From a virus, in IMG/VR virus record IMGVR_UViG_3300003541_000001, positions 1 through 49,078 of that record: a stretch of 49,078 bases of DNA; one strand, written 5' to 3'. The translations under genes were made by a program, and so were the position numbers. A model generated the notes under the pieces. That model had not been told where the DNA came from and searched no databases. It saw nothing but the letters and a program-made list of their open reading frames with translations. This document shows positions 165 to 27,899 of the stretch, piece by piece. Each line of letters starts with the position of its first letter. Positions within the stretch are counted from its first letter, which is position 1.

Positions 165-180
165 GAAATATAAATTGATT

Positions 181-3048: not shown

Positions 3049-3186
3049 CCATGACAAACAACATTAAGGTATTTGTTATCCCGGCTTTAGGCTTTGGATA
3101 TTTCGAGGAGGAGATCGGCGACCTAATGACTGTTAGGTCTATCCCGATACTCTGTTTTAAGATTAGTACTTACCAATACTTGTAGA

Positions 3187-3891
3187 ATGTTTTCATATTA
3201 CGGAAGTAAGTCAAAGATAGTGGACTATTATCCACCACCAAAATATGGAAAGATTATCGAACCATTTGCAGGATCGGCTCGATATTCATTAAAATATTTT
3301 GATAGAGATATTACTTTAGTGGATAAATATGATAATGTTATTAAAGTATGGAAATGGTTACAGGAATGTAGTAAGGATGATATTTTAAAATTGCCAAGCC
3401 TTAAATCATTAGGGAGGGGATTCGATTTAAGAACTTTGGAACTTTGCGATGGGGCGCTTTTATTTTTAGGGTTTAACGCCGGTATTGCATCTACTTCTCC
3501 GCGCTTTAAGATAAGTCCATTTGCCGCGGAACAAAACGGAATGCAAACTTATATAAAAAGAGTTGCAAATAATCTATGGAAAATAAAACATTGGAAAATA
3601 GAACTTGGTTGTTATACTGAAATTAACAACGCAGAGGCGACATGGTTTATTGATCCACCCTATCAACATGGTGGTCACGCATATGTAGAAAACGAAATTG
3701 ATTTTAAACAATTATCTAATTGGTGTAGAAATAGAATAGGACAGATTATTGTTTGTGAAAATACTAAAGCAATGTGGTTACCTTTTAAACCAATGAAAGA
3801 GTTAGAAGGAGCAATGTTTAGAACCACTGAAGCTATCTGGTCGAATTATCCGACAAATTACGATTACGTTCAACGAAATTTATTCTTATGA
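3187..3891 (+). CDS. D12-class (Dam-like) N6-adenine DNA methyltransferase
   Basis: YYGSKSKIV...IIEPFAGSARYS (motif I) and WFIDPPYQ (motif IV), in the order typical of the MethyltransfD12 family. Confidence 0.7.
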   Translation: MFSYYGSKSKIVDYYPPPKYGKIIEPFAGSARYSLKYFDRDITLVDKYDNVIKVWKWLQECSKDDILKLPSLKSLGRGFDLRTLELCDGALLFLGFNAGIASTSPRFKISPFAAEQNGMQTYIKRVANNLWKIKHWKIELGCYTEINNAEATWFIDPPYQHGGHAYVENEIDFKQLSNWCRNRIGQIIVCENTKAMWLPFKPMKELEGAMFRTTEAIWSNYPTNYDYVQRNLFL

Positions 3892-4340
3892 AACGACTAT
3901 TAACCATTATCCTCTTTTTAGCCCTTGCGGTGCGATCTTACGCACCCGGATATTCAGCCTTGACCATATTCGCTTCGGAGCCTTTCCATAGGTTATTCAC
4001 GCCACAGGAGGTCTCTGAAGCTATTATTTGGGTTGAGACGGGCAATAACGGATCGGGTGCTTATAACAGAATCGAACCTCAAGCGAAAGGGATATTCCAG
4101 CAATGGCCGATCTTTGTTGATGATGTCAACAGGATTTTAGGCTATAAGAAGTTTGCCTATTCCGACAGGCTTATTTCTTCGAGGGCAAAAGCGATGTTTT
4201 GGATATATCAGAAGCACTACAACCCTTCGCTTGACTTTGAAATCATGTGCCGGCTGCAATGTGGTGGCCCCGATGGCCCGGAACAAAGCTGCACCGACAA
4301 TTATCTTGAACTTGTGAAACAGAAACTTTATAACGACTGA
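3888..4340 (+). CDS. Secreted SLT-like lytic transglycosylase or lysozyme
   Basis: N-terminal signal-like MKRLLTIILFLALAV, then IWVETGNNGSGAYN...AKGIFQQ, which resembles the catalytic Glu and GLMQ-type SLT motifs. Confidence 0.45.
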   Translation: MKRLLTIILFLALAVRSYAPGYSALTIFASEPFHRLFTPQEVSEAIIWVETGNNGSGAYNRIEPQAKGIFQQWPIFVDDVNRILGYKKFAYSDRLISSRAKAMFWIYQKHYNPSLDFEIMCRLQCGGPDGPEQSCTDNYLELVKQKLYND

Positions 4341-4990
4341 TGATCGAACTTTTAAATAAAGATTGTATGGAGGTTATGGCTCAATACCCTGATAAGTATT
4401 TCGATCTCGCCATTGTCGATCCGCCGTATGGGGTAAGTCAACCCGCTTTCAGGAAGGAAAGTAAAAATAAAGCCTGTAAACCGACACAATATAATAACGC
4501 CGTTTATAACCAACCCCGCCCATCATCAGGATATTTTAATGAACTTTTTAGGATCTCGAAAGATCAAATAATTTGGGGTGCGAATTACTTTTTATCTCAT
4601 TTAAAGGAGGGTACTAAATGGATCTTTTGGGGTAAACAAACCGAAGATGCACAGTGGGGAGATGGCGAACTGGCATATACTTCGTTTGGTGGTGTGATTA
4701 CAAAATTTGATTTTGCATGGAACGGAATGATACAAGGTGATATGAAACATAAAGAACACCGTATTCACCCCACCCAAAAACCCGTTCATCTTTACAAGTG
4801 GCTTTTAAAGAACTATGCCAAGCCTGAATTTAAGATCATAGACACTCACGGCGGATCTATGTCATCAGTAATCGCCTGTTATGATTTTGGTATTACTGAA
4901 ATGGTTTGTTGTGAGATTGATAAGGAATATTTTGATGCAGCAGTTAAAAGATTTGAAGTTCATAAAATGCAAACAGTAATAAGTTTTTGA
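4340..4990 (+). CDS. N4/N6 DNA methyltransferase (beta class, DPPY before motif I), paralog of 47694..48314
   Basis: AIVDPPYG near the N-terminus; HPTQKPV and IIDTHGGSMSS near the C-terminus. Confidence 0.75.
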   Translation: MIELLNKDCMEVMAQYPDKYFDLAIVDPPYGVSQPAFRKESKNKACKPTQYNNAVYNQPRPSSGYFNELFRISKDQIIWGANYFLSHLKEGTKWIFWGKQTEDAQWGDGELAYTSFGGVITKFDFAWNGMIQGDMKHKEHRIHPTQKPVHLYKWLLKNYAKPEFKIIDTHGGSMSSVIACYDFGITEMVCCEIDKEYFDAAVKRFEVHKMQTVISF

Positions 4991-9366: not shown

Positions 9367-9397
9367 TTGCAAATGGGATTTAGATAATATAAATTTG
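9367..9397 (+). promoter_or_regulatory. Bacteroidota-type promoter (TTG-N20-TAAATTTG) ahead of the glycosylation operon
   Basis: TTG at 9367..9369 and TAAATTTG at 9390..9397. Confidence 0.55.
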
Positions 9398-9403: not shown

Positions 9404-9471
9404 TGCCGGTGCGGGTCGCACCTCTCCCTTGAGAGATTGACAGTAGCGTAATTTAGTTCCTGTCCCCGGCA
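9404..9471 (+). promoter_or_regulatory. Structured 5' leader (four-way junction) of the glycosylation operon
   Basis: P1 is TGCCGG (9404..9409) with CCGGCA (9466..9471). It encloses hairpins TGCG/CGCA, CTCTC/GAGAG and GACAG/CTGTC, followed by TTTT. Confidence 0.35.
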
Positions 9472-9482: not shown

Positions 9483-10235
9483 ATGAAGATAAGTATAGTT
9501 ATTGCATATTACAATCGAAGAGATCAATTCTTAAAAACTCTTGAGTCAATATTGGCATGGGGTAAGCCGGAGATAATAGTTGTTGATGATGCCTCAACTG
9601 AAAGGATAGACGACATTAAAGAGATTAATCTCATTAGGATAGAACCAAAAGATAAGTGGTGGTTGAATCCTTGCATCCCCTATAACATTGGATTCTCTAA
9701 AGCGACCGGAGATGTTATTATAATTCAGAATCCGGAGTGTATCCATGTGGGGAATATTTTAAAGTATGCTGGTAAGTTAAAATCAGGTAGGGTATTTAGT
9801 TTTGGTGCATATTCACTCGACTATAATCTCGAATATGAGATATATGATTATCTATATTTAAAGAAACTGATTTTAAGCGAACCTCAAAGATGCCAGGTTG
9901 CTCATCATGGTTGGTATAATCATTCTGTTTACCGTCCCGAAGCACTGCACTTTTGCAATGCTATAACAAGACAAGACCTTAAAAAAATTGGGGGGTTTGA
10001 TGAGCAGTATGCCTACGGGGTTGGCCATGATGATAATGATATGGTAATGCGAATAAAAAAGGAAGGGATAGACTTAAAGATAGTAGATAATCCGTTTGTT
10101 ATTCACCAGAAGCATAAAAGAACAGACTATTCAGATCCTAGAATAATTGCTGGATGTCTTTTGAATACAAGAATCTTTGAAAGAACTTCAAAAGAAAAGA
10201 TGATAAAACCGTTGAATAATAAATACTACAACTAA
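9483..10235 (+). CDS. Family 2 glycosyltransferase (GT-A)
   Basis: ISIVIAYYNRRDQFLKTLESI...IIVVDDAS and later GHDDND, the typical Glycos_transf_2 layout. Confidence 0.7.
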   Translation: MKISIVIAYYNRRDQFLKTLESILAWGKPEIIVVDDASTERIDDIKEINLIRIEPKDKWWLNPCIPYNIGFSKATGDVIIIQNPECIHVGNILKYAGKLKSGRVFSFGAYSLDYNLEYEIYDYLYLKKLILSEPQRCQVAHHGWYNHSVYRPEALHFCNAITRQDLKKIGGFDEQYAYGVGHDDNDMVMRIKKEGIDLKIVDNPFVIHQKHKRTDYSDPRIIAGCLLNTRIFERTSKEKMIKPLNNKYYN

Positions 10236-10239
10236 ACTC

Positions 10240-10926
10240 ATGGGTGATCTTTATTTATGTACTCATTATGGATTTGGCGATTATGTGATGTGCTATGGGT
10301 TAATTAAGGAGTTATCTTTAAAGTATAATAAGATATTTTTATTCGGATTGCCACATTGCACACCATTACATATTAACAACATTAAAAGATTATATAGCAG
10401 TATTAAAAATGTGGAGATCATTACTAAAGATCCGTCATTATATAAAGATGTTATGTATCTCGGATGGGGTAAATATTTTGAAATGATCGAGGGGGGGGCT
10501 GCTATACAGTGTGCAAAATATTTCTATAAGCAGGCAGGCGTTCCACTAAACCTAATGTGGAGTAACTTTTATTTTAAACGGGATTTGGATAAGGAAAGAG
10601 ATATATTTTATAATAGGTTAAAGTTGAGGGATGATGATGAATATATTTTTTTGCATGAAGACATTTCACGGGATTACATAATTGATAGAAAATATATCAA
10701 ACCAGGGGTCAGGGTTATTATTTTAAATCAGATGCCGGATATATCAATATTGGATATACTTTATTTGATTGAGAGGGCAGCGGAGGTTCATATAATCAAT
10801 ACCGGATTAGTTTCTTTTGTAGATCAGATGAATATCAAACACGACAATTTAAATTACCATAAATATACAAGGCCGGAAAGTTTTGAACAGCCCATTCTAA
10901 GATTAAAGTGGAAAATACTAAATTAA
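10240..10926 (+). CDS. Hypothetical protein, possibly a GT-B/GT9-like transferase; contains a G8 tract
   Basis: The C-terminal pattern IFLHED...ILDILYLIERAAEVHIINTGLVSFVD is reminiscent of heptosyltransferase C-domains. Weak call. Confidence 0.35.
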   Translation: MGDLYLCTHYGFGDYVMCYGLIKELSLKYNKIFLFGLPHCTPLHINNIKRLYSSIKNVEIITKDPSLYKDVMYLGWGKYFEMIEGGAAIQCAKYFYKQAGVPLNLMWSNFYFKRDLDKERDIFYNRLKLRDDDEYIFLHEDISRDYIIDRKYIKPGVRVIILNQMPDISILDILYLIERAAEVHIINTGLVSFVDQMNIKHDNLNYHKYTRPESFEQPILRLKWKILN

Positions 10927-11198
10927 TGGATGAGGTAATCACATTCAGTGAATTAGTTGATAAATTAATCACTGTAAATATAAAATTATATAATCTACTC
11001 GAAAAGACTTCTGAACTTGACAGAAAGAAAGAGAAGACAAAAGAGGATATTGATCTTATTGTGAAACTAAGTGGAGATAACATAAACCTTGCAAAGACAA
11101 GGAGTGTCTTAAAATCTGCAATAGATAATAAACTAAATGCCGCAATTAAAAACGGGAGTACAGGGGTTCTAAATGAATTTAAAGGATATAGTGAATGA
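10926..11198 (+). CDS. Small coiled-coil protein, possibly DUF4254-like
   Basis: TAATG coupling. LVDKLITVNIKLYNLLEK resembles the DUF4254 helices often seen beside GT9 genes, from memory only. Confidence 0.35.
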   Translation: MDEVITFSELVDKLITVNIKLYNLLEKTSELDRKKEKTKEDIDLIVKLSGDNINLAKTRSVLKSAIDNKLNAAIKNGSTGVLNEFKGYSE

Positions 11199-11929
11199 AA
11201 AAGATTCATGTTGCATTTGCTAATGACAAGTTTCTAAAGAGTCTTAACATATTAGAAAAGACTTCTCTTGCTATTGGGGGCGTGGATAAATTTATAAGAT
11301 ACGAGACGAAAGACTTACAAATAGATAATTTCTGGCAGGAGAATCATTGCATTTTATCACAACCATTAGGAGCAGGATTTTGGATATGGAAACCGTTTAT
11401 TATTCTCCAGGCAATGAAACAAACTGAAGACGGAGATATTATTTTATATACTGATGCCGGTGTGGAAGTCTTAAATTCACTCAATCCTTTATTTAAGATT
11501 ACGGAGACTTCAAAAGACAATAGAATGTTATTTGCCCTTACGATGAATTATGGCACTCATCGGCATTCGGAATATACAAAAAGAGATTGTTTTGTTTTAA
11601 TGGGGCAGGATGAACCAAAATACTGGAATGCAAGGATGCTTAATGCCGCATTCTCATTATGGATGAAAACCGAGAAGAATATAGCTTTTTTAATGGAGTG
11701 GCAAAAGTATCTTAAAGATTCCAGGGTTGTAACCTACGAACCTAATACTTGTGGGAAACCCAATCTCCCAGACTATATAGATCACCGTCACGACCAGGCA
11801 GTATTATCATTGTTGAGTTTAAAGTACGGGAGGGAATTATATAGGGAGCCAACTCAATTTACAATTAATGAGAGTTTTGATAATTCTCCTTATGGGCAAT
11901 TATTTAATCATCATGGAGGGGTAATATGA
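11195..11929 (+). CDS. Putative nucleotide-sugar transferase
   Basis: GFWIWKPFIILQAM...IILYTDAGVEV (a DxD-like region). Sits inside the glycosyltransferase cluster. Confidence 0.4.
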   Translation: MKKIHVAFANDKFLKSLNILEKTSLAIGGVDKFIRYETKDLQIDNFWQENHCILSQPLGAGFWIWKPFIILQAMKQTEDGDIILYTDAGVEVLNSLNPLFKITETSKDNRMLFALTMNYGTHRHSEYTKRDCFVLMGQDEPKYWNARMLNAAFSLWMKTEKNIAFLMEWQKYLKDSRVVTYEPNTCGKPNLPDYIDHRHDQAVLSLLSLKYGRELYREPTQFTINESFDNSPYGQLFNHHGGVI

Positions 11930-12741
11930 GAGGATGGTATTTAAACATACCGAAGAAATTTCATGTTTTCTGGTCGGGGAATAAACTCCCTTACCTGAGA
12001 TATCTTACTGTAAAGACGTTTAAAGAACTCAATCCTTCATGGGAGATTAACCTCTGGACTTCGCAGGTTAAGTCAGAAGTGAGGACATGGAATACTCATG
12101 AACTCAATTATTCAGAGACGTGGGAGGATTGGACAGATAGACTTTGGAAACTTTGCGATAATATCCACATGATAGATTTCACGAACTTTGGGGTTAAAAA
12201 TTCAGTTGCAGAGGTTCATAAGTCTGATCTTTTAAGGTGCTGGATATTAAACGAGGTTGGAGGAGTTTATTCTGATACCGATATATTTTACTTCAAGCCG
12301 ATAACAAACTTAGAAGTAAATCGCAGGAAGAATAAATATGCTGAGACTTTCGTTTGTATCTGCCATTATGGTCATTCTAACGGGTTTTGGATGGGGTCAA
12401 AAGGGAGTCGGTTTTTTGGAGAGTTATTTGAACAGTCCAAGAAGATTGATCCGGCCAGGTATCAAAGTAATGGGCCGGAACTTTGTAATCGTATGTTCAG
12501 GACGATAGAATCTATTAATGAGATTTCTCCGGCGGTTAATATCGGTATGGAAGCGGTTTATTATTATAATGGTCAGCACGTGGATGCTATATATTCAGAA
12601 GAAAGAGTTATCTTTGATAAGAAATCAATAGGTATTCACTGGTATGCCGGGCATCCACTATCAGGAATGTTTCTGAATAGAACTAACGGGGGATTGACAA
12701 ATCTTCAAAACAGCATTATGGATAAATTATGTAAGTTATGA
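11926..12741 (+). CDS. GT32-like glycosyltransferase (DXD sugar-binding region)
   Basis: FHVFWSGNKLP...INLWT...KSDLLRCWILNEVGGVYSDTDIFYFKP matches the Gly_transf_sug pattern. Confidence 0.65.
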   Translation: MRGWYLNIPKKFHVFWSGNKLPYLRYLTVKTFKELNPSWEINLWTSQVKSEVRTWNTHELNYSETWEDWTDRLWKLCDNIHMIDFTNFGVKNSVAEVHKSDLLRCWILNEVGGVYSDTDIFYFKPITNLEVNRRKNKYAETFVCICHYGHSNGFWMGSKGSRFFGELFEQSKKIDPARYQSNGPELCNRMFRTIESINEISPAVNIGMEAVYYYNGQHVDAIYSEERVIFDKKSIGIHWYAGHPLSGMFLNRTNGGLTNLQNSIMDKLCKL

Positions 12742-13865
12742 AAGTTTTAACTCTACTTGGAACCAGGCCGGAGATCATAAGGCTATCTGTTATTATGCCG
12801 AAACTCGATGAGGTTTGCGATCATAAAATTGTTTATACAAATCAGAACTTCACAGTTTCTTTATCGGATATATTCTGGAATGATTTGAGATTAAGAATGC
12901 CGGATTATATTTTCATGCAAACCGGAAGCCCCGGTTCATTTTTTGGTAATGGGTTTAGAGCGTTTGAGATGATTTTAGATAAAGAAAAGCCGGATAAGAT
13001 TCTTATACTGGGAGACACCAATTCTGTTCTCTTTGGTATTCTTGCAGCAAAACGGGGGATTCCCATTTATCACATGGAGGCGGGTAATAGATGTTACGAC
13101 CCATCAGTGCCGGAAGAGACGAATAGGATGATTATAGATGCCTGTTCACTTTACAACCTTCCCTATACTGAAAACTCGAAGGAGAATCTCATCCGGGAAG
13201 GACACTCAAAAAATTACGTCTTCAAAACAGGCAATCCTATCAAAGAGGTTCTTTGTCATTATATCGAAGATATTAATAAAAGCAATATTCTTGATGCTTT
13301 AGGATTCCGTGATTATATAGTTAATGAAGAACACCATTACATAGACTATGCCCTTCTCTCTTTTCACCGCACCGAGAATGTTGATAATCCTTACAGGGCA
13401 AAACAAGTGGTCGAAGCGATAAATAAAGTTGCTGAAGATATGCCGGTTGTTTATTCTTTTCATCCGAGGACAAAAGATCAGTTTGCTAAACATGGGATAA
13501 AATTCTCTGACAAAGTGAAACTCATTGAGCCGTGCGGATTCTTTGACTTCGTTAAATTGGAACAGAACGCAAAAGTCGTCTTCACTGATTCAGGTACAGT
13601 ACCGGAGGAGACTATGCTTTTCAGAGTGCCGACAATTGTATTAAGAAACACCACCGAGAGACAAGAACTCATGGAGACAGGGACACTTATTCTCGCCGGG
13701 ACAAATACCGAGGACATTTTAAGAGCATATTCCCAAATAGGGAACTTAAAACAAAAGTGGGTTAAACCAGATGACTACACTAAAGAAAATGTGAGTGATA
13801 CTATTGTGAGGTTTTTACTTGGACAGCAAATCAGGAAAGAAGTCAAGGGTCATGATGAATATTGA
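12738..13865 (+). CDS. UDP-N-acetylglucosamine 2-epimerase family enzyme
   Basis: MKVLTLLGTRPEIIRLS..., ILGDTNSVL, HMEAGNRC, FHR.EN and VFTDSGTVPEE are hallmarks of the Epimerase_2 family. Confidence 0.8.
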   Translation: MKVLTLLGTRPEIIRLSVIMPKLDEVCDHKIVYTNQNFTVSLSDIFWNDLRLRMPDYIFMQTGSPGSFFGNGFRAFEMILDKEKPDKILILGDTNSVLFGILAAKRGIPIYHMEAGNRCYDPSVPEETNRMIIDACSLYNLPYTENSKENLIREGHSKNYVFKTGNPIKEVLCHYIEDINKSNILDALGFRDYIVNEEHHYIDYALLSFHRTENVDNPYRAKQVVEAINKVAEDMPVVYSFHPRTKDQFAKHGIKFSDKVKLIEPCGFFDFVKLEQNAKVVFTDSGTVPEETMLFRVPTIVLRNTTERQELMETGTLILAGTNTEDILRAYSQIGNLKQKWVKPDDYTKENVSDTIVRFLLGQQIRKEVKGHDEY

Positions 13866-13866
13866 T

Positions 13867-14880
13867 ATGTTTAAGGATCAAACCATAGCAATTATGGGAG
13901 GTTCTGGATCGTGGGGTCGGGAACTAACCCGGCAACTCATTTTGAAGGAACCAAAGGAGATAACCATATTCTCTCGTGGTGAAATTTCCCAGGTGGACAT
14001 GGAGAGGACTTTTAACAATCCTTTGGTTCGGTATGTCATTGGGGATATAAGAGATAAAGAAGCCGTTGATAAAGTCATGCAGGGGGTTGATTATGTTTTT
14101 CAGCTCGCAGCCCTAAAGCACGTGCCTATCTGTGAGAATCAACCGCACGAGGCAATATTGACAAATATATATGGAGTTATCAATTTGATAAACTCGGCGA
14201 TAAAGCACAAAGTAAAGAAGTTTATTGATGTCTCAACTGACAAAGCTGCCGATCCCTCGAATCTTTATGGGATGACAAAAGCCATAGGAGAGAAATTAAC
14301 TATTCAGGCAAATTGCCAAACTAAAAACACCGAGTTTATTTGTGTGCGTGGAGGTAACGTCCTCGGAACAAATGGTTCTTTGGTTCCGTATGTCATCAAT
14401 CAGATAAGATACACAAATAAAGTCAAAGTCACTAATGATAAGATGACTCGGTTTTTCATTACACTCCCGGAAGCTATCGAATTGCTTTTTATAGCAACCG
14501 AACACGGTATAGGGGGTGAGACATACATAATGAATATGCCTTCTTTTAAGATCATCGACCTGGTTGACTTATTAGTGAACTTTTACGGATCCCCGGATAC
14601 TAGAATAGAAATAACAGGTTCAAGAGAGGGGGAGAAGCTCCATGAGGTACTGATAACAGAACAAGAAGGCGATAGGGCAAGGGTAGTCAATAAGGATTTG
14701 TTCGTCATTTACCCTCAGATAAAAACAGGCAGGAATTATTTTCATCAATGGGATGCTGAAGCTCATTGGAACGAGGCGACGGGGTTAATGAATATCCTTC
14801 ACCACAAACTCACTTCAGAAGACAATTTAAAAGATCGACAATGTTTAACCGAACTATTAAAAAAGGGGGGATGGCTATGA
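13867..14880 (+). CDS. UDP-GlcNAc 4,6-dehydratase (PseB/FlaA1/CapE/FnlA-type short-chain dehydratase)
   Basis: IAIMGGSGSWG (Rossmann motif), IGDIRD, FQLAALKHVPICENQP, STDKAADPSNLYGMTK (catalytic Y..K). An alternative start is 13852. Confidence 0.8.
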   Translation: MFKDQTIAIMGGSGSWGRELTRQLILKEPKEITIFSRGEISQVDMERTFNNPLVRYVIGDIRDKEAVDKVMQGVDYVFQLAALKHVPICENQPHEAILTNIYGVINLINSAIKHKVKKFIDVSTDKAADPSNLYGMTKAIGEKLTIQANCQTKNTEFICVRGGNVLGTNGSLVPYVINQIRYTNKVKVTNDKMTRFFITLPEAIELLFIATEHGIGGETYIMNMPSFKIIDLVDLLVNFYGSPDTRIEITGSREGEKLHEVLITEQEGDRARVVNKDLFVIYPQIKTGRNYFHQWDAEAHWNEATGLMNILHHKLTSEDNLKDRQCLTELLKKGGWL

Positions 14881-15038
14881 TCTGTCCTTATGACGATCTC
14901 GGATGTACTGGTGTTGACACTTCCGGCATGGATAAGGTAGATTGTAAAGCCTGCCCCCATTACCATAGCGGCACTCGAAAAGCACCGAGGCTGGGATTCT
15001 TTTATAATCTTTTCAAATGGATCAAAAGACAGCATTAA
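14877..15038 (+). CDS. Small Cys-rich protein
   Basis: ATGA-coupled ATG. MICPYDDLGCTGVDTSGMDKVDCKACPHYH. Confidence 0.4.
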   Translation: MICPYDDLGCTGVDTSGMDKVDCKACPHYHSGTRKAPRLGFFYNLFKWIKRQH

Positions 15039-15673
15039 TAGCATCTATCCCCGAAAGAGAGGATATGCTTAAATTAACGGTTGCTTCTTTGCGGCCCCAA
15101 GTGAACAGAATCTTCGTGTCTCTGAACGGATATGACCATGTTCCTGACTTTGTAGATACCGACGAATATGTTCTTTTGGATAATTCAATGGGGGATGCTG
15201 CTAAGTTCTATTTCGCTGAACAATGCAAAGGTTATATCCTGACATGTGATGATGACCTCATCTATCCTTTGGGTTATGTAGATAAAATGGTTGCAGGTGT
15301 TGAAAAATATAAATGTCCTTGTTCGTTACACGGGAGATTTTATTCAAGACCGGTTATGGGTTTTCAGGAATCATTCTTTGGTTTCCCTTGTTTGAATGAT
15401 GTAATGACAGATGTCGAGGTCGATGTAGGTGGTGACGGGGTGATGTGTTGGCATACCGATTTATTAAAGATCAGGTTTGAGGATTTCAAGCAGAAGAATA
15501 TGAGCCAACTTTATTTTTCAAAGGTGTGCCATGAACAAGGAGTTAAGATAATGTGCCTTGCTCACCGGACGGGATATTTGAAATACCAATTTCCAGGATA
15601 TACAATCTGGGATGAGTCGGCAAAAGAAGGATTCAAGAAACAAACTGAACTTTTAAAATCATTTCTCGTATGA
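15017..15673 (+). CDS. GT-A-like glycosyltransferase
   Basis: ALIASIPERED...LRPQVNRIFVSLNGY...ILTCDDDLIYP (DxD). Confidence 0.5.
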   Translation: MDQKTALIASIPEREDMLKLTVASLRPQVNRIFVSLNGYDHVPDFVDTDEYVLLDNSMGDAAKFYFAEQCKGYILTCDDDLIYPLGYVDKMVAGVEKYKCPCSLHGRFYSRPVMGFQESFFGFPCLNDVMTDVEVDVGGDGVMCWHTDLLKIRFEDFKQKNMSQLYFSKVCHEQGVKIMCLAHRTGYLKYQFPGYTIWDESAKEGFKKQTELLKSFLV

Positions 15674-15815
15674 AGGATTATAGAATAGATGTAGGAGATT
15701 ATAAAAAAGCCTCCGATGAGTTTCGTAAGAATCCCATATTGTTTTTAAGCGATCCATTATTTTATATGGAGTGCTGCATATTAATAATTTTTATAGTTGT
15801 TATGATAAACAGCAT

Positions 15816-15995
15816 ATGTTAAAACGATTCTTATTCTTCATTGTATTTTTAATCACCATTGCAATATTGATTGTGCCGGTGGTTATCTCAATGCTTATAT
15901 GGGTATTCTCCGGTAAGGGATTGATGTGGATAGTAAGAACAATGGACTGGATGTTATCAACTCATAAAATGGAAAGTTATGCCGTACAAAAGTAA
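15816..15995 (+). CDS. Small membrane protein
   Basis: MLKRFLFFIVFLITIAILIVPVVISMLIWVF has two hydrophobic segments. ATG 15816 lies within track ORF 15771..15995. Confidence 0.45.
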   Translation: MLKRFLFFIVFLITIAILIVPVVISMLIWVFSGKGLMWIVRTMDWMLSTHKMESYAVQK

Positions 15996-16122
15996 AGCAC
16001 AGGAAAGATGGGCGCACACCAAAGCAGGGAAGAAGGCTCTTGGTAAAAAAGGAGTCGCCGAATTTGACAAAGCGTCAAAGGGTAAGAAACTACCAAAACG
16101 AGTTAAAACAAAAAAGAAATGA
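15979..16122 (+). CDS. 47-aa basic protein, DUF3008-like (not in the ORF track)
   Basis: My translation MPYKSKAQERWAHTKAGKKALGKKGVAEFDKASKGKKLPKRVKTKKK resembles the MPxKSKAQ... phage family. Confidence 0.5.
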   Translation: MPYKSKAQERWAHTKAGKKALGKKGVAEFDKASKGKKLPKRVKTKKK

Positions 16123-16313
16123 TAAAGATCGAAAGGACTCATGACTGTAAATCATATTGGAAGAATGATGGTCTTTACGACAAGTATCGGGTAATTAATG
16201 TTAAGATAAAAATATTTGGTGTTACAATATGGAGCAACACCGAGAGTTACGATAGCGACCTGATCTCTGTTAATGACAGTAACGGGATGGGGTTTAAAGT
16301 AGATAAAAAGTAA
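16119..16313 (+). CDS. Hypothetical small protein
   Basis: ORF track; ATGA coupling to the upstream ORF. Confidence 0.45.
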   Translation: MIKIERTHDCKSYWKNDGLYDKYRVINVKIKIFGVTIWSNTESYDSDLISVNDSNGMGFKVDKK

Positions 16314-16317
16314 TAAG

Positions 16318-16737
16318 ATGGCACGGAATAAAGGAGAAGATGAACTGAATAGACTATTTGATGAGATAATCACAGATATTTCAGAGAATGGGACATCGGC
16401 TATTTCTGCAATGAAAGATAAAATGTCGTCAGCAACTTTCTATGGATTATTAAAAGATAAAGAGAGGTTAAACAGATACGCGCGCGCAACCGAAATGAGG
16501 GCTGATTTAATGGCTGATGAGATACTTGAAATTGCGGATTCTGTCGGTGGCGATATGATTACACTAAAAGACGGGAGTAAGGTTGTGGATAATGCCGTTG
16601 TGCAACGGGATAGATTAAGGGTTGATGCGCGGAAGTGGTTGCTTGCAAAACTGCATCCTAAAAAATATGGTGAAAAGATTGATATAACTTCCGATTTTGA
16701 ACCAATAGGAAACATTAAACTCATAAGGGGGGAATGA
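16318..16737 (+). CDS. terS: Terminase small subunit
   Basis: Lies directly upstream of TerL and overlaps it. The C-terminus VQRDRLRVDARKWLLAKLHPKKYGEK is a typical TerS motif. Confidence 0.75.
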   Translation: MARNKGEDELNRLFDEIITDISENGTSAISAMKDKMSSATFYGLLKDKERLNRYARATEMRADLMADEILEIADSVGGDMITLKDGSKVVDNAVVQRDRLRVDARKWLLAKLHPKKYGEKIDITSDFEPIGNIKLIRGE

Positions 16738-17945
16738 GGGATCTGACAATAAAACATAGCAAGGTTTTAGATAACTTATTTGAATCACAAAAGAGGGTTA
16801 TGGTTCTTGAGGGCGGATCATCGTCAACAAAAACATGGTCTATCTTTCAATGGATAATAGTGAACTGCTCACAGAACAGAAACGAGAGTTACACGATAGC
16901 CAGGTTGAAGATGACATGGACTAAAGCCACCTTGTTAAAAGACTTCGAGACTATGGTTGTCATGTATGGTCTTCCTGTTACCCCTGATATAAACATCAAC
17001 AGGCCGGATCAGTCATATAGGCTTTGGGGTAATGAACTTAATTTCATCGGGCTTGATGAACCACAGAAGGCTCATGGACGAAGGCAAGATTATCTTTGGC
17101 TCAATGAAGCTATGGAGGACTCGGAGAAAGAGGCTAACCAATTAATGATTCGAACAAAGAAGCGGATATTTATTGATTACAATCCCGCCGCTGAGAGCCA
17201 TTGGATTTATGATAATATCATTTCTCGTCCTGATTGTGATTTCTTTCACTCTACAATGAGGGACAATCCGTTCCTTGAACAGTCAATCATTGATGAGTTA
17301 AACAGGCTTGAGAATACTGACCCCGTTGCTTATAAGATTTATAACCTCGGACTCAGGGCAGTTCAAAGAGGGTTGATATTTAAGAATTGGGAGATCGTCC
17401 CCTGGATTCCTGAAGGGGCAAAAGTCATTGGTTATGGTCTGGATTTCGGGTATGTGAACGATCCATCAGCGCTGATGAGAGTGTGTCTCTTAAACGGGGA
17501 GCTTTGGATTGATGAACTTATCTATGAGAGAGGACTTGTCAACGTGCCTATCAGAGATGCAAGGACAGGGGCGACTCAAAAGAACATATCAGATCGTATG
17601 GTTGCCTGTGGATTAAAAGGGGGTTATGATGAGGTGATCGCAGATTCAGCGGAGATAAAATCTATTCATGAGCTTTATGCTATCGGATGGAATATGAAAC
17701 CGGCTCACAAACCGAAGATAACATTCGGACTCGACATACTTTTAAGATATAAGATAAACATCACAGAACGCAGTGTAAACACAATTAAGGAATTTAAAAA
17801 CTACAAGTGGGCAGTGGACAAGGACGGGGAACCGATACGCCCGGAGAAACCCATTGATGACTTCAATCATGGGATTGACGCTATCAGGTATGTGGCCGTT
17901 CTTAAACTCTCTCAAAGATTTCAAGGAATAAAACGCACTAATTAA
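16734..17945 (+). CDS. terL: Terminase large subunit (PBSX/Terminase_3-like)
   Basis: Walker-A-like LEGGSSSTKTWS, Walker-B-like YLWLNEA, and nuclease-domain acidic motifs GLDFGYVNDPSA and VIADSAE. Confidence 0.85.
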   Translation: MRDLTIKHSKVLDNLFESQKRVMVLEGGSSSTKTWSIFQWIIVNCSQNRNESYTIARLKMTWTKATLLKDFETMVVMYGLPVTPDININRPDQSYRLWGNELNFIGLDEPQKAHGRRQDYLWLNEAMEDSEKEANQLMIRTKKRIFIDYNPAAESHWIYDNIISRPDCDFFHSTMRDNPFLEQSIIDELNRLENTDPVAYKIYNLGLRAVQRGLIFKNWEIVPWIPEGAKVIGYGLDFGYVNDPSALMRVCLLNGELWIDELIYERGLVNVPIRDARTGATQKNISDRMVACGLKGGYDEVIADSAEIKSIHELYAIGWNMKPAHKPKITFGLDILLRYKINITERSVNTIKEFKNYKWAVDKDGEPIRPEKPIDDFNHGIDAIRYVAVLKLSQRFQGIKRTN

Positions 17946-17961
17946 TTTAATATTAAAAATC

Positions 17962-18195
17962 ATGGAAACAATCGCAGCAGCAATCATCGTGGCAATCATT
18001 ACAGTTATCGTGATGAAATTGATCGAAAGAGAAAAGGAATATTCAGTATCATTCATCCTTCCGTTTTTCGAGGGTGACGAAGATAAGGCAAAAGAGACCT
18101 TTGATAAATTGGCAGGATTAAAGATACCTGATAAATATATCAAGGTAAAGAAAGTAGTGACAGGTACTGAGTTTACTTTTACTGTAAAGAAATAA
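17962..18195 (+). CDS. Small protein with an N-terminal transmembrane helix
   Basis: METIAAAIIVAIITVIVMKLI... Confidence 0.5.
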   Translation: METIAAAIIVAIITVIVMKLIEREKEYSVSFILPFFEGDEDKAKETFDKLAGLKIPDKYIKVKKVVTGTEFTFTVKK

Positions 18196-18200
18196 AAGTC

Positions 18201-18353
18201 ATGTATAAAGGCAATGGAGCGAAATGTGTTGATTGTGGGTATCAAGACGATGTTAATAGTTTTGATATTGATGCAATGGATGAAGGAGATCCATCCCCTG
18301 TAATTACCTGCCCTAAATGTGGTGGTGTTGCTGAAATAATAGATGAAGAATAA
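18201..18353 (+). CDS. 50-aa zinc-ribbon protein (not in the ORF track)
   Basis: My translation is MYKGNGAKCVDCGY...ITCPKCGGVAEIIDEE (CxxC...CxxC). TAATG-coupled to the next gene. Confidence 0.5.
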   Translation: MYKGNGAKCVDCGYQDDVNSFDIDAMDEGDPSPVITCPKCGGVAEIIDEE

Positions 18354-18610
18354 TGAAGTATCTAATTGTTCTTTGTTTACTGCTTTTGTCTTGTGAGAAA
18401 CCGCAACCGGAACAGATAATAGAACCTGTCTTTTGTTATCAGTGCTGGAGGGAATATATCAATCCGGTTCATAATATATTTGAGTCTTTGGAGATTGATT
18501 TCTGCAACATGACCGAGGAGCAAATGAACAGGATCATCAAAGAAAATACTTATTACAGTCCTGATAGCACAGTGTCTTTAATATTACGATGTCAAAAAGG
18601 AGGTATATGA
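18353..18610 (+). CDS. Putative lipoprotein
   Basis: MKYLIVLCLLLLSCEKP, a signal peptide with a lipobox Cys. Confidence 0.55.
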   Translation: MKYLIVLCLLLLSCEKPQPEQIIEPVFCYQCWREYINPVHNIFESLEIDFCNMTEEQMNRIIKENTYYSPDSTVSLILRCQKGGI

Positions 18611-19623
18611 AAAGTCTTGGAGTGTCAATGATCGTTAAAAATGAAAGTGAATGTATTGAGGCATGTCTTGAATCGATCAAAGGAGTCGATGAGATAGTTA
18701 TTGTTGACACGGGGTCAGAAGATAACACGGTTGAACTCTGTAAGAAGTATACCGATAAAGTATATACCGATTATAGTTGGCAGGACGATTTTAGCGAAGC
18801 AAGGAATGTATCCCTATCACATTGCACCGCTGACTGGATCTTAATAATCGACGCTGACGAGGTTTTAAAGTGTTCTATCGAAGGATTGAGACACGTCCTG
18901 AACTCGTATATGGCCAAGAATGTCGAGGGTCATACAATCAGATATATGGGTATGTTGTTTGCCGTTCATACGGGGGTAGAGATAGTTGAGTCGATAAGGA
19001 TAATCAAAAATGATCCCTCAATCAAATGGGAGGGCGCAGTTCATAACTCACTAACTTTGGATGGTAATAATGAACATTTGAAAAACTCATGTTATAAATC
19101 AAAGTTTGAGATTGCATCAGGATACTCTCCGGCGCATTTTAAAGACCCCAATAGGAGTTTGAGGATACTAACCAAGCAACTTGAATTAAACCCTGACAAT
19201 ACACGGTATCAATATTACATGGCACGAGAATACATAGCAAGGAGAATGAACCCAGAAAATAAAGATCAGGTGGATGAATTACTCGATAAGATAATCTTTT
19301 GGCTTGAGAAATACGATGCTATTGCTTTTCACGGGGACTGGACAAACGAACTCGCAGACGCTTTGTATCTTCTTGCTTTGGCTTATTTCGAGAAGGTAAT
19401 GGTAACAAAAGACATCAGTTGGTGGCATAAAGGATTCGTTTCAGCGTTGAAGAGTTTTGCTGTGCTGCCTTCTTATCAGGCTCCTGCAAAGTTACTCTGT
19501 GATGCTATGCTTGAGATACCAGGATCAAAAGGAATGGTAAAATACAGGGCAGCTCATGAGTTCTGGCAACTGATAGCCTCGAAGTGTTCCAATGCAGGGG
19601 TCGCTCAGTTGAGAAAAGTATAG
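18607..19623 (+). CDS. GT2 glycosyltransferase with a C-terminal TPR-like helical domain
   Basis: SMIVKNESECIEACLESIKGVDEIVIVDTGSEDNT, ILIIDADEVL (DxD), then helical repeats LELNPDNTRYQYYMAREY... ATG 18607 follows AAGGAGG. Confidence 0.7.
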   Translation: MKSLGVSMIVKNESECIEACLESIKGVDEIVIVDTGSEDNTVELCKKYTDKVYTDYSWQDDFSEARNVSLSHCTADWILIIDADEVLKCSIEGLRHVLNSYMAKNVEGHTIRYMGMLFAVHTGVEIVESIRIIKNDPSIKWEGAVHNSLTLDGNNEHLKNSCYKSKFEIASGYSPAHFKDPNRSLRILTKQLELNPDNTRYQYYMAREYIARRMNPENKDQVDELLDKIIFWLEKYDAIAFHGDWTNELADALYLLALAYFEKVMVTKDISWWHKGFVSALKSFAVLPSYQAPAKLLCDAMLEIPGSKGMVKYRAAHEFWQLIASKCSNAGVAQLRKV

Positions 19624-19872
19624 ATGTGTCAACACGGTAATACCAAACCGCTTGTAGTTATCGGTAATGACGGCAAAGCAAAATTTGCCGACATTGATTC
19701 TTGTATTTACAAACTCGTAAAGGTACTGAATGATTCGGGGTTTAGGACTAAGGCGTGCTGCTGTGGCCATGGTAAGACAAATGGCAATATAGCATTAATG
19801 GATGGCAGGGAATTAATTATAGCAAAAGATTGGAATGAAGCAAGAAAAATCGAATCGGGATTACATAAATAA
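19624..19872 (+). CDS. Small Cys-rich hypothetical protein
   Basis: ORF track; FRTKACCCGHGKTNGNIAL. Confidence 0.5.
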   Translation: MCQHGNTKPLVVIGNDGKAKFADIDSCIYKLVKVLNDSGFRTKACCCGHGKTNGNIALMDGRELIIAKDWNEARKIESGLHK

Positions 19873-20245
19873 AATAATTCCATTGGTAATATATCCGTTT
19901 GATGTGATGATTTCTTTCAATGAGTCAGATAAACAAATTACAGAGGCATTGAAACGGTTTGGAATAATTGAATCAGAGTGTCATGAATCATTACTTTTCA
20001 ATATGGATAAGGTGAAAACGCTGAGAGGCAGGATGGTTATGTTCCTTGGAAAACAAACTGTATTAAGGTTGAATTTCATTCCGAAAACAAATAACCCGGA
20101 ACACATGGGATTACTTCAACACGAGATATTTCATGCGGTTGGGTTTATCATGCAAGAGATCAATACACCCCTAAATACAGACACTCATGAAGCTTATGCT
20201 TACCTCATCCAATATTTAACAGAGCAGATTTACAGGACATTATAA
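19835..20245 (+). CDS. Putative zinc metallopeptidase (HExxH)
   Basis: LLQHEIFHAVGF. The start is uncertain (19835, 19883, 19904 or 19907). Confidence 0.45.
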   Translation: MKQEKSNRDYINKIIPLVIYPFDVMISFNESDKQITEALKRFGIIESECHESLLFNMDKVKTLRGRMVMFLGKQTVLRLNFIPKTNNPEHMGLLQHEIFHAVGFIMQEINTPLNTDTHEAYAYLIQYLTEQIYRTL

Positions 20246-20274
20246 TATATGTTAATAAGTATATATGTAAATAC

Positions 20275-20305
20275 TTGCCTATGTCGGAAATATTGACTAT
20301 CTTTG
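20275..20305 (+). promoter_or_regulatory. Bacteroidota-type promoter (TTG-N20-TATCTTTG) for the structural module
   Basis: TTG at 20275..20277 and TATCTTTG at 20298..20305, in the 134-nt gap before 20380. Confidence 0.5.
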
Positions 20306-20379
20306 TAGTCTAATGCCTAAAATACGAGGTAAACATTTCCGAATGATTTTTCAATCGTTAAACTTAAAATCATAATCCA

Positions 20380-20988
20380 ATGGCAATAACAGTATGTCAG
20401 TGTCCTGTTTCTACGACTATTGCATCTATCGTGACTTCGGTCAATGACTGCAAAATTGAACTGGGACAGATTCAAAAACTTATATTCTGGAGGCATGGTC
20501 AGTCACTCGCTGCTGCCGCTTCCGCTATTTCGTCTTCAGTATGGACTACAAGGCTCGCCGCTGTCGGTGACACGAAAGCCGTTGTCTCTCCATTTGTATC
20601 TCTTATCATACCACCTACGGCCAAGAGGGAAGTAGGATCAGGTAATGAGGTTCGTGATGGCATTCCTATTGCTATCGGCACTCTTCCTGTAAAGTGTGAA
20701 GGTCATATATGGCAGACAAGCCAGGCGACGATAAAACTCTTGAAGAATCTTGAATGTGAAGACCTCGATGTTATGTTCGTCAATGAGAACGGGCAGTTGG
20801 CTTATTCGCTTGAGAGCGGTAAGGTCAAGGGATTCCCGGTGACGTCGTTCTTTGTTTCTGATCTCGGAGCTGGTTCTTATGCAGACGGTTCAAAGAATCA
20901 ATTTTCGTTCTATCTCTCTGGCGGGTGGTCACTCAACTTTACGCTCACGGCAGCTACCACATTCTTACTTGACGCAGTTAACTCGTAA
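20380..20988 (+). CDS. Hypothetical virion-module protein
   Basis: First ORF after the late promoter. No family recognised. Confidence 0.6.
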   Translation: MAITVCQCPVSTTIASIVTSVNDCKIELGQIQKLIFWRHGQSLAAAASAISSSVWTTRLAAVGDTKAVVSPFVSLIIPPTAKREVGSGNEVRDGIPIAIGTLPVKCEGHIWQTSQATIKLLKNLECEDLDVMFVNENGQLAYSLESGKVKGFPVTSFFVSDLGAGSYADGSKNQFSFYLSGGWSLNFTLTAATTFLLDAVNS

Positions 20989-27290: not shown

Positions 27291-27899
27291 ATGTCGATTA
27301 AAACTCCGATAATACCGAACCTTGCTTTAAAGGGCATTGATGCAAAGATTCAAGAGATTCAGATTCTTATGGATTCGAATCTCTCATGGCTTGTAAAATC
27401 CTTTGGACTTGCTGATAGGATTGTAGATCAGAAAAATGATAAACCTTATATTTATCCAGCAGTCTTTGAGTCAAATGTTAAAGACCCTATCCCCTTGATG
27501 CCAAGTGATGTTTGGGATTCGTTCGCTTTCTGGACTAAATCAGGAGAGTTAAGGATTGACTCCGAGGGTAGTTTCGTATCAAAGAATCCATTAATAACTC
27601 AAGAGGTCAGTTGTATCTTTTATATGGACATAAGTAAGATTGATAATGTCTCAACTTATAAAGAAACAAAGTCAAAGATCATTGAAGACGTATTCGATTT
27701 CTTTAATAATGTTCATGTGTCTGCAATGCTGGTTCCTGTGAAGTTTATCGAAGATGATATTACCAAAGTCTTTGACGGGTTCACTTTAGATCAACTCGAC
27801 AATAAATGGAAGATGTATCCTAAGTGGACTTGTCGCATGGACTTTGAGTTAAGTTACCGGGATGGTTGTTATTCACTGAATACTTATTCTCATACTTAA
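27291..27899 (+). CDS. Hypothetical neck or tail protein
   Basis: Position only. Confidence 0.5.
   Translation: MSIKTPIIPNLALKGIDAKIQEIQILMDSNLSWLVKSFGLADRIVDQKNDKPYIYPAVFESNVKDPIPLMPSDVWDSFAFWTKSGELRIDSEGSFVSKNPLITQEVSCIFYMDISKIDNVSTYKETKSKIIEDVFDFFNNVHVSAMLVPVKFIEDDITKVFDGFTLDQLDNKWKMYPKWTCRMDFELSYRDGCYSLNTYSHT

Follow-up and report, generated by a model that had tools for sequence, protein, structure and literature searches.

A phage glycosylation island and a GmaR/SunS-like glycosyltransferase in the head module of a probable Bacteroidota siphophage: a candidate virion glycosylation system

RESULTS

A nine-gene island and its upstream region

The IMG/VR virus record IMGVR_UViG_3300003541_000001, analyzed here over its full 49,078 bases (the window), carries nine tightly packed open reading frames (ORFs) on the plus strand between positions 9483 and 15673, in which neighbors overlap by 1 to 22 nucleotides (nt) or, in one case, are separated by a 4-nt gap (Table 1). 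These ORFs constitute a glycosylation island, and an additional glycosyltransferase (GT) gene lies downstream at 18607. In total, the inventory comprises six GTs, five in the island and one at 18607, together with two sugar-nucleotide enzymes. Genes are named below by their start positions.

TABLE 1 Features of the island, its surroundings, and other loci discussed in the text
Feature	Positions	Strand	Remarks
Bacteroidota-type -7 box TAnnTTTG, TAAATTTG	9390-9397	+	Consensus match
Structured 5' leader	9404-9471	+	GCCGG...CCGGC closing stem enclosing internal hairpins; T-run directly before the first start codon
GT2-family glycosyltransferase, GT-A, inverting type	9483-10235	+	Alternative start TTG at 9474
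Compact GT-B-like protein, predicted GT9 heptosyltransferase-like fold	10240-10926	+	Orphan family; variable cassette
90-amino-acid (aa) ORF	10926-11198	+	Variable cassette; conserved at 67% in L005 and L006
Predicted retaining-type GT-A, GT6/GT8-like fold	11195-11929	+	Orphan family enriched in viruses
GT32-like DXD glycosyltransferase	11926-12741	+	PF04488, 5.1e-11
CapG/FnlC-type UDP-N-acetylhexosamine (UDP-HexNAc) 2-epimerase, non-hydrolyzing	12738-13865	+	
UDP-N-acetylglucosamine (UDP-GlcNAc) 4,6-dehydratase, PseB/CapE/FnlA (Polysacc_synt_2) family	13852-14880	+	Start from the gene call
53-aa four-cysteine mini-protein (C3, C10, C23, C26)	14877-15038	+	Overlaps the start of the last GT
Divergent GT2-like GT-A	15017-15673	+	CDDD motif; most conserved island GT
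Small and large terminase genes	16318-17945	+	Between the island and the sixth GT; phrog_1482 (TerS), 2e-28; Terminase_3 and Terminase_3C on the 403-aa product
GmaR/SunS-like GT2 with 145-aa C-terminal domain	18607-19623	+	338 aa; proposed initiating protein GT
MP2 homolog	20380-20988	+	Candidate acceptor by adjacency and abundance; phrog_8193, 8e-38; Ser plus Thr, 19%; -7 motif at 20298
Probable major capsid protein, B40-8 MP1-like homolog	24173-25201	+	Second candidate acceptor; phrog_7231, 5.5e-77; B40-8 synteny
Collagen-like (G-X-Y) fiber protein	28207-28935	+	Variable accessory
DNA methyltransferase genes	3187-3891, 4340-4990, 47658-48314		One D12 N6-adenine type, two N6_N4 type

Bases 1 to 81 of the window are repeated exactly at 48998 to 49078. 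This exact direct repeat of 81 nt at the termini shows the window to be a complete phage genome, circular or terminally redundant, with a unit length of 48,997 bp. Nearly every gene is on the plus strand, and the G+C content is about 38%. The portal and large terminase (TerL) proteins share about 32 to 35% identity with phages of the Bacteroides B40-8/B124-14 group and of Flavobacterium, Parabacteroides, and Elizabethkingia, and the order of the structural genes agrees with that of Bacteroides phage B40-8. The phage is a siphophage distantly related to B40-8.

A sigma-70 promoter scan was uninformative on this genome, and the Bacteroidota -7 motif TAnnTTTG was used instead. It occurs 31 times, compared with about 22 copies expected from base composition, and 9 of the 31 fall in the few intergenic gaps (at 157, 9390, and 20298, five within 42065 to 42904, and at 48708). 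Since this box is concentrated in intergenic gaps and the distant relatives include phages of the B40-8 group, the host is probably a member of the Bacteroidota.

The copy at 9390 stands 84 nt before the TTG at 9474 and 93 nt before the ATG at 9483. No TTTG -33 box was found near it, and the promoter is a consensus match only. In the stretch from 8 kb to 21 kb, the only intergenic copies are this one, ahead of the island, and the one at 20298, ahead of the MP2-homolog gene; the gap at 15996 to 16118 has none. Because no intergenic -7 motif lies between 9390 and 20298, a single unit at the head of the late gene block probably takes in the island, the terminase genes, and the sixth GT. The original prediction had placed nine contiguous, translationally coupled genes behind a promoter of their own. 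The overlaps and the 4-nt gap bear out the coupling, and the box at 9390 supplies a consensus-match promoter, but the transcription unit probably continues through the terminase genes instead of ending at 15673.

Between this box and the first start codon lies the structured leader, which folds at -27 kcal/mol (z = -2.16). Two related contigs, L011 (around 3654 to 3735) and L009 (around 3061 to 3140), retain its closing stem, a CTCTCC/GGAGAG hairpin, and the T-run, and a third, L006, lacks the leader. The comparison covers three sequences only and contains two compensatory pairs. From its predicted fold and position, the leader is possibly an attenuator, an antitermination target, or a terminator-like element that opens the late operon.

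Relatives of the phage

Related contigs (L001 to L006, L009, L011 to L013, L023, and L024) were collected from IMG/VR, ENA, NCBI, and GTDB at 55 to 80% portal and terminase identity and compared with the window by tblastn. With the island as query, megablast found no match among 50,697 phage records, and tblastn of the 15017 protein against INPHARED phages found none either. The epimerase matched mainly bacterial contamination inside "phage" records, plus a few cyanophages. A portal-profile scan of 185,579 GTDB species genomes found no integrated copy of the phage. It returned only five phage-sized contigs of metagenome-assembled genomes (MAGs), and since these disagree in taxonomy, no host was assigned from them.

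Glycosyltransferases and small ORFs of the island

Two of the island GTs belong to families that Pfam recognizes directly. The 9483 protein matches PF00535 (2.3e-10), PF02709 (Glyco_transf_7C; 4.9e-8), and PF10111 (5e-8), shows weak EpsD- and MftF-like matches, and is conserved at 63 to 76% identity in L002, L005, L006, and L009. The 11926 protein, which matches the GT32-type domain, also has weak matches to the Pfam families TcdA_TcdB and Caps_synth and, in the PDB, to SetA and toxin B; its gene is conserved in L002, L005, L006, L009, and L012. The 15017 protein has no Pfam match of its own, and about 18 of its 102 homologs carry PF00535, which suggests a divergent GT2. A homolog is present in every relative sequenced across its position.

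For the two remaining transferases, structural models made with AlphaFold2 (AF2) were compared with known folds. The 10240 family has more than 100 homologs and a Pfam domain in none of them, and a search of its profile against PDB sequences gave no match. The AF2 model (predicted local distance difference test [pLDDT], 94; predicted template modeling [TM] score, 0.88) has as its best PDB folds 3tov (GT9; E, 1e-4), 1psw (WaaF), and 6dfe (WaaC), with TM scores over the query (TMq) of 0.41 to 0.54. On this model, we assign the protein with moderate confidence to the GT9-type GT-B enzymes. The gene is missing from L002 and L011.

The 11195 family has 242 homologs, again with a Pfam domain in none, and the protein's own Pfam match is limited to GT8 at 0.017. 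Its profile found nothing useful among PDB sequences, so that a fold comparison was needed. The AF2 model (pLDDT, 94.2) gave 163 PDB matches at E values of 1e-3 or below, the best being Bacteroides BoGT6a (4cj8; 1e-5), human blood-group GTB, glycogenin, and LgtC, and it matched A64R, the capsid GT of chlorovirus PBCV-1 (2p72), at 1.4e-4. Further close fold matches with TM scores of 0.73 to 0.88 came from uncultured phages (0.88), several viral proteins, and a protein of the giant virus Hyperionvirus; a protein of Synechococcus phage S-SRM01 matched at 0.75. The predicted fold is clearly that of a retaining-type GT-A. Two orphan families of about 100 and about 240 metagenomic members thereby gain a fold-level assignment as glycosyltransferases.

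The GT2 and the GT32-like DXD enzyme that had been read from the sequence at 9483 and 11926 are therefore confirmed by their Pfam domains (PF00535, 2e-10; PF04488, 5e-11). The possible GT-B at 10240 is supported by a model matching GT9-type folds, the putative transferase at 11195 proves to have a GT-A fold in its model, and the additional GT-A at 15017 is upheld through its PF00535-bearing homologs. The two sugar-nucleotide enzymes of that prediction, described below, held up as well.

The two small ORFs of the island have no assigned family. No significant match was found for the 90-aa product of 10926 in family searches. DUF6165 proteins precede 11195-like genes in T4-like phages, and membership of the 90-aa ORF in this family is not supported (BLASTP E, 0.6; no Pfam match). 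The N-terminal part of the 53-aa mini-protein is kept in L001 to L003, L005, L006, L011, and L013. In L012, which lacks the dehydratase, an equivalent 53-aa four-cysteine ORF occupies the same position (3187 to 3348), below detection by tblastn at 1e-4. The cysteines show a zinc-ribbon-like spacing, and the mini-protein has no Pfam match.

Sugar-nucleotide enzymes and possible donors

The 12738 protein matches PF02350 (Epimerase_2) at 9e-81 and exceeds the cutoff of TIGR00236 (241 bits against 210). Among PDB sequences, it scores highest with CapG (7ya2; 278 bits), followed by an archaeal UDP-GlcNAc 2-epimerase (4neq; 247 bits) and the Escherichia coli and Bacillus WecB/MnaA-type enzymes (116 to 145 bits). 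The 13852 protein matches PF02719 at 4.6e-88, as expected for the 4,6-dehydratase that had been predicted. It stays below the equivalog cutoffs of PseB (282 bits against 408) and FnlA (210 bits against 730), and the match is therefore one at family level. Its PDB matches are Helicobacter pylori FlaA1 (2gn4; 219 bits), 6bwc, deposited as CapD (214 bits), Acinetobacter baumannii FnlA (4j2o; 203 bits), Staphylococcus aureus CapE (202 bits), and Megavirus Mg534 (4tqg; 150 bits).

The CapE-CapF-CapG route converts UDP-GlcNAc to 2-acetamido-2,6-dideoxy-L-hexoses, with the dehydratase acting first and the CapG-type 2-epimerase last. A C3-epimerase/C4-reductase of the CapF/WbjC/Mg535 type is absent from the window, and Pfam and family scans of its ORFs found no second short-chain dehydrogenase/reductase (SDR). 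A 6-deoxy-L-HexNAc product would, on this gene content, require a host reductase. The only relative with such a gene is L009, which has a frameshifted Cap5F-like SDR (114 bits to 2zkl) directly before the epimerase. Because L012 has the epimerase without the dehydratase, the 12738 epimerase may instead act alone, converting UDP-GlcNAc to UDP-N-acetylmannosamine (UDP-ManNAc).

The GmaR/SunS-like transferase at 18607

The catalytic domain of the sixth GT matches PF00535 at 4e-16. In the PDB, it matches Listeria GmaR (22ao; E, 6.6e-28; 101 bits), SunS of Bacillus SPbeta (7msp/7msn; 5e-17; 65 bits), and 7msk (2e-14; 57 bits), which we take to be the S-glycosyltransferase ThuS. Its DADE motif aligns with that of GmaR. 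The best NCBIfam model is the SunS family, TIGR04195 (5.5e-21; 75 bits against a cutoff of 350), and yolJ of SPbeta is 28% identical. No match was found among mycobacteriophages. The gene had been predicted to encode a GT2 enzyme with tetratricopeptide repeats (TPR). The GT2 domain is confirmed and the TPR part is not; the C-terminal 145 aa match neither TPR nor anything else in Pfam or among PDB sequences.

GmaR, SunS, and ThuS are cytoplasmic enzymes that act on soluble polypeptide acceptors directly from UDP-sugars, and SunS glycosylates the sublancin peptide. The GT domain of GmaR adds GlcNAc to flagellin (PMC9638930). The likeness of 18607 to protein and peptide GTs speaks positively for a protein acceptor and does not depend on the absences from which the original prediction argued.

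The gene is present in all of the related contigs compared, and its position is also conserved. It lies between TerL and the MP2-homolog and portal genes in ten contigs (L003 to L006, L009, L011 to L013, L023, and L024), and this placement holds in L004 and L009 despite their different TerL type (27% identity). In B40-8 and L027, which are more distant and free of the GT, the genes for TerL, the 202-aa protein (MP2 in B40-8), and the portal are directly adjacent.

Two small ORFs adjoin the sixth GT and are not conserved in relatives: one for an 85-aa predicted lipoprotein with a signal ending in LLLSC (18353 to 18610) and one of 136 aa with a metalloprotease-like HEIFH (HExxH) motif (19835 to 20245).

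Cassette exchange among relatives and recurrence elsewhere

The island of the window reads, in order, GT2, GT9-like protein, 90-aa ORF, GT6/8-like protein, GT32-like enzyme, epimerase, dehydratase, four-cysteine mini-ORF, and second GT2. In relatives, this order is varied by whole genes. L002 and L011 lack the three cassette genes, L012 has an additional, different GT2 and is missing the dehydratase, and L009 has two further GTs and the Cap5F-like reductase. Because GT cassettes are swapped among otherwise similar phages, the gene content implies diversifying selection on the structure of the glycan, as would fit an exposed surface.

Members of the same families recur at unrelated loci. In L008, an unrelated HK97-type phage, a 15017 homolog (38% identity) directly precedes the portal and capsid genes, and another (32%) lies in a bacterial GT10/GT2 cluster (L007). 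Genes of the 10240 and 11195 families occur in very large glycosylation islands beside Gp23-type capsid genes of T4-like phages; in two such contigs, L010 (Logan SRR5272498) and JGI 3300075153, the islands exceed 20 genes and hold paralogous copies of both families. The T4-like islands also carry genes for GT25, GT11, and GT10 enzymes, FkbM-type methyltransferases, WcbI, a DegT aminotransferase, a hexose 2,3-dehydratase, a SPASM protein, DUF6165, and an AGT-like DNA glucosyltransferase.

Export, lysogeny, and DNA base modification

Family scans (Pfam and/or PHROGs) covered every ORF of at least 140 aa, and a hydropathy scan covered all 85 ORFs. None of the 85 products has four or more membrane spans; the only three-span protein (39798 to 40187) lies next to the lysis region. 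No Wzx flippase, Wzy polymerase, initiating phosphoglycosyl transferase, or GtrA/GtrC protein was found by hydropathy, Pfam, or PHROGs. The family scans of the complete genome likewise revealed no integrase, recombinase, resolvase, or repressor module. These results uphold the original prediction that the genome has neither multi-pass export proteins nor an integrase. They also uphold its view that classical lysogenic serotype conversion is unlikely, with no integrase, GtrA flippase, multi-span GtrC, or Wzy found.

One relative hints at integration. In L009 (ENA contig_53724; 80 kb; 15096 to 20447), a related island and head module stop at a truncated portal gene, beyond which lie bacterial genes for an AMIN-domain protein, a MiaB-like UPF0004 protein, and LolA. 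Many of its phage genes, including those of the island, are broken by frameshifts. L009 is probably a chimeric (long-read) assembly or a degraded, decayed integrated copy.

Among the ORFs of at least 140 aa, no thymidylate synthase (ThyS) homolog (hydroxymethylase or 5-hydroxycytosine [5hoC] synthase), TET/JBP-type 5mYOX enzyme, or C5-cytosine methyltransferase was found, although a very divergent enzyme is possible. Pfam and PHROGs scans of sizeable ORFs found no DNA polymerase. The earlier judgment that DNA is the less likely glycan target agrees with the lack of a C5-methyltransferase, TET/5mYOX, or ThyS homolog.

Structural proteins as candidate acceptors

The sixth GT and the -7 motif at 20298 are followed by the gene for the MP2 homolog. 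MP2 of B40-8 is a major virion protein, annotated as major head protein or major tail protein 2. The probable major capsid protein has a Ser/Thr-rich stretch at residues 78 to 97, which is not diagnostic. The predicted collagen-like protein is indeed encoded in the genome. It was considered as a conserved acceptor and rejected, since the cassette that contains it (27866 to 29777) is absent from L023 and L024, both of which keep the GT at the 18607 position; it is also undetectable in L002, which keeps the GT as well. This part of the original prediction, in which the fiber was one of several possible targets, is thus weakened. Two distant GT-homolog loci, L014 and L015, have collagen-like genes nearby, but such genes are common and were given no weight.

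DISCUSSION

A candidate system for virion glycosylation

The gene content and synteny described above suggest that the island and gene 18607 encode a lipid-carrier-independent protein glycosylation system, which would act in the host cytoplasm late in infection with virion proteins as the likeliest acceptors. We give this reading about an even chance of being correct. A cytoplasmic acceptor such as the virion had already been proposed in the original prediction, on the ground that export machinery is missing. The acceptor is favored by the GmaR/SunS-like GT, by the placement of that GT between TerL and MP2, by the probable late unit, by the exchange of cassettes among close relatives, by the recurrence of the families beside capsid genes, and by the close giant-virus matches to the predicted fold of one of them. 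The missing export genes prove little, because soluble GTs can extend host undecaprenyl-phosphate (Und-P)-linked glycans that are exported by the host flippase and polymerase.

The following scheme is drawn from the enzymes, absences, synteny, and modularity observed; its acceptor, sugars, timing, and order of action are inferred. The inverting GT2 at 18607 would start the glycan by using a UDP-sugar to place GlcNAc or a hexose on a Ser, Thr, or Cys residue of a folded phage protein. The five island GTs, retaining and inverting, would then lengthen it into a short hetero-oligosaccharide. The epimerase and dehydratase would feed unusual donors from the host UDP-GlcNAc pool, namely, UDP-ManNAc and/or a 2-acetamido-2,6-dideoxy-L-hexose of the N-acetylfucosamine (FucNAc), N-acetylquinovosamine (QuiNAc), or N-acetylrhamnosamine (RhaNAc) series. 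Abundant virion proteins are the likeliest acceptors, with the MP2 homolog and the capsid protein as candidates, and the particle would thereby acquire a coat of glycans.

Several observations weigh against virion glycosylation. The likeness of 18607 to GmaR and SunS is limited to the catalytic domain, its score with the SunS model is far under the cutoff (75 against 350 bits), and the C-terminal domain, which would be expected to bind the substrate, has no detectable TPR or other homology. The structural proteins show no Ser/Thr-rich tail or extension and no clade-specific insertion, and clades with and without the GT share the same structural gene set. Adjacency of genes in phage genomes may reflect no more than permissive insertion sites. 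Without a reductase, the nucleotide-sugar pathway would be incomplete or host dependent. CapE/CapG-type enzymes and a GT32/Caps_synth signature are characteristic of capsule and O-antigen loci, and soluble GTs are able to work on Und-P-linked intermediates of the host. Finally, bacterial genes adjoin a related island in L009, which may be a sign of integration or a misassembly and is the sole such hint in the clade.

Host surface, other acceptors, and DNA

A rival reading is a remodeling of the host envelope, in which the soluble phage GTs and sugar-nucleotide enzymes act at the inner membrane face on Und-P-linked intermediates of capsule, lipopolysaccharide (LPS), or Bacteroidota O-glycans. 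The host's initiating transferase, flippase, and polymerase would finish the product, and the changed surface would block superinfection or the adsorption of progeny to debris. The CapG and CapE/PseB-type enzymes stem from capsule and O-antigen pathways, the 11926 enzyme matches Caps_synth weakly, the GT9-like fold of 10240 belongs to LPS-core heptosyltransferases, and a distant 15017 homolog sits within a bacterial GT10/GT2 cluster. The lack of a phage 4-reductase points to dependence on host surface-glycan sugar pathways, and where the phage has no export genes, those of the host are still usable. Nevertheless, we consider this unlikely, if by no means negligible. A complete genome without integrase or lysogeny function leaves little time for a surface change to matter, and the island heads a probable late and packaging unit. 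The likeness of the sixth GT is to protein GTs, and its gene lies within the head module. The genome encodes no GtrA/GtrC-like protein and none with four or more spans, and the same GT families recur beside capsid genes of unrelated phages.

Protein-directed glycosylation need not be aimed at the virion. The acceptor could be a host protein (a defense factor, a receptor, or a pilin- or flagellin-like protein), a glycocin-like phage peptide, or a metabolite, given that SunS, the SPbeta homolog of 18607, modifies a secreted peptide, that GmaR modifies the host protein flagellin, and that small cysteine-rich ORFs surround the GTs (18201 to 18353, 19624 to 19872, and 14877 to 15038). The small ORFs adjoining 18607 are, however, not conserved in relatives that keep the GT, and the scans revealed none of the genes usual at glycocin loci (for a leader peptide, an ABC transporter, or immunity). 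A machine of six GTs that builds an oligosaccharide would be large for a regulatory modification, and the linkage is to head genes and not to early host-takeover genes, so that an acceptor outside the virion appears improbable. Still less probable, to the point that we regard it as a slim chance, is hypermodification of DNA, in which the GTs would glycosylate a modified base before packaging (as in T4, in RB69/DLP3, or in the 5mYOX type) and the adjacency to the terminase would reflect that step. DNA glycosylation by phages is an active field (bioRxiv 10.1101/2023.12.21.572611; PMC13326640), and phage enzymes of the GT-A and GT-B folds, with relatives among LPS and teichoic-acid enzymes, glycosylate 5-hydroxymethylcytosine and are often encoded close to genes for terminase, methyltransferase, and epimerase (bioRxiv 10.1101/2023.12.21.572611). 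At least three DNA methyltransferases are encoded in the window, and the T4-like contig L010, which shares GT families with it, has an AGT-family DNA glucosyltransferase. Against this, Pfam and PHROGs found no ThyS-like hydroxymethylase or 5hoC synthase, TET/JBP 5mYOX, C5-methyltransferase, or DNA polymerase, and all of the methyltransferases are of the N6/N4 type. Ordinary shotgun sequencing of several samples yielded the contig, and most GT contigs without 5mYOX or ThyS have been judged unlikely DNA modifiers (bioRxiv 10.1101/2023.12.21.572611).

Comparison with known systems

The closest precedent for virion glycosylation among tailed phages is found in mycobacteriophages. Che8, Corndog, and Myrna use their own GTs to decorate abundant capsid and tail tube proteins in the cytoplasm with a glycan that shields the particle, according to the accounts of Freeman et al. 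2023 given in PMC12363180 and PMC12582341. Like the window, these phages encode soluble GTs without export machinery. Their system is experimentally proven, whereas that of the window is predicted from its genes, and their hosts are Actinomycetota rather than probable Bacteroidota. The window system is also larger, with six GTs, and adds nucleotide-sugar enzymes and a proposed GmaR/SunS-like initiator.

Giant viruses offer a second parallel. The fibril glycans of Megavirus involve the Mg534/535/536 pathway (PMC10117803). Clusters such as Mg534 to Mg539 of Megavirus chilensis and, with A64R, that of chlorovirus PBCV-1 join a UDP-GlcNAc 4,6-dehydratase/5-epimerase, a 2-epimerase, and several GTs, make glycans of the virion surface without host membranes (PMC10117803), and are clade specific and modular in composition, as is the island. 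Mg534 (4tqg) is a direct homolog of the window dehydratase, and the predicted fold of 11195 is close to the Hyperionvirus protein and to several other viral proteins and, more weakly, to A64R. Unlike the phage, the giant viruses have eukaryotic hosts and other GT sets, and Megavirus has the 4-reductase Mg535, which the phage does not.

For the individual enzymes, GmaR, SunS, and ThuS are the best-scoring characterized homologs of the 18607 GT domain, and the DADE motif is conserved. GmaR differs in its length of 637 aa and in having a TPR, a linker, and an antirepressor domain; SunS has 422 aa, compared with 338 aa for 18607. Homologs of the first and last enzymes of S. aureus CapE-CapF-CapG and of Pseudomonas WbjB-C-D, the UDP-L-FucNAc route, stand side by side in the window, but the middle, CapF-type reductase is lacking. 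As in lysogenic serotype conversion (gtrABC, phage-borne Wzy, and O-acetylases), phage genes would alter a glycan. In contrast to it, the window has no integrase, GtrA flippase, or multi-span GtrC/Wzy, and a bactoprenol-linked step is not evident. The window system lies outside the classes of lysogenic conversion, Wzx/Wzy systems, and DNA glycosylation, because the defining features of these three classes were looked for and not found. Relative to known virion glycosylation, its novel aspects are the host lineage, a GmaR/SunS-like initiator candidate fixed in the head module, an incomplete CapE/(F)/G pathway, and O-antigen-like swapping of cassettes.

In the literature that we found, virion glycosylation by tailed-phage enzymes is documented only in a few mycobacteriophages, where it alters antibody recognition. 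If virion glycosylation by the window phage is correct, the trait would extend to another host phylum and to uncultured environmental phages. Phage systems would be tied mechanistically to giant-virus fibril glycosylation by a common dehydratase/epimerase pathway and a GT fold, and a GmaR/SunS-like GT lodged between the terminase and major virion protein genes would serve as a sequence marker.

A broader proposal is more tentative, and we regard it as possible but doubtful. An environmental, probably Bacteroidota-infecting siphophage clade may possess a "virion serotype" system, in which the GmaR/SunS-like GT of the head module primes major virion proteins and the interchangeable cassettes of an O-antigen-like island build a strain-specific oligosaccharide coat containing ManNAc or 6-deoxy-L-HexNAc. 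T4-like jumbo phages would have these cassettes in common with the clade, and giant viruses at least one GT fold. Were this so, virion glycosylation would be widespread, horizontally traded, and diversifying in tailed phages, beyond the mycobacteriophages. The swapping of cassettes among close relatives suggests selection for diversity of the glycan, which bears on phage-host and phage-immune interactions and on engineered glycan-coated phages.

Other features of the genome

The three DNA methyltransferase genes suggest heavy anti-restriction methylation. Those at 4340 and 47658 are partial paralogs that share stretches of DNA with 77 to 85% identity. The first gene of the window (175 to 843) encodes a DUF5131 (phage Gp37/Gp68-like) protein with a weak radical-SAM signature.

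The noncoding region at 42053 to 42908 contains a plus-strand match to the Rfam permuted transfer-messenger RNA (tmRNA) family RF04321 (42150 to 42399; 49.3 bits against a gathering threshold of 47; E, 8.6e-7). ARAGORN places a permuted tmRNA with the tag peptide ENKFAW at 42118 to 42615 on the same strand. This segment may be a tmRNA-like gene carried by the phage, or the match may have arisen by chance in a region rich in promoters. Two 45-nt direct repeats (42103 to 42147 and 42502 to 42546) also lie here, each bearing promoter-like TAnnTTTG boxes.

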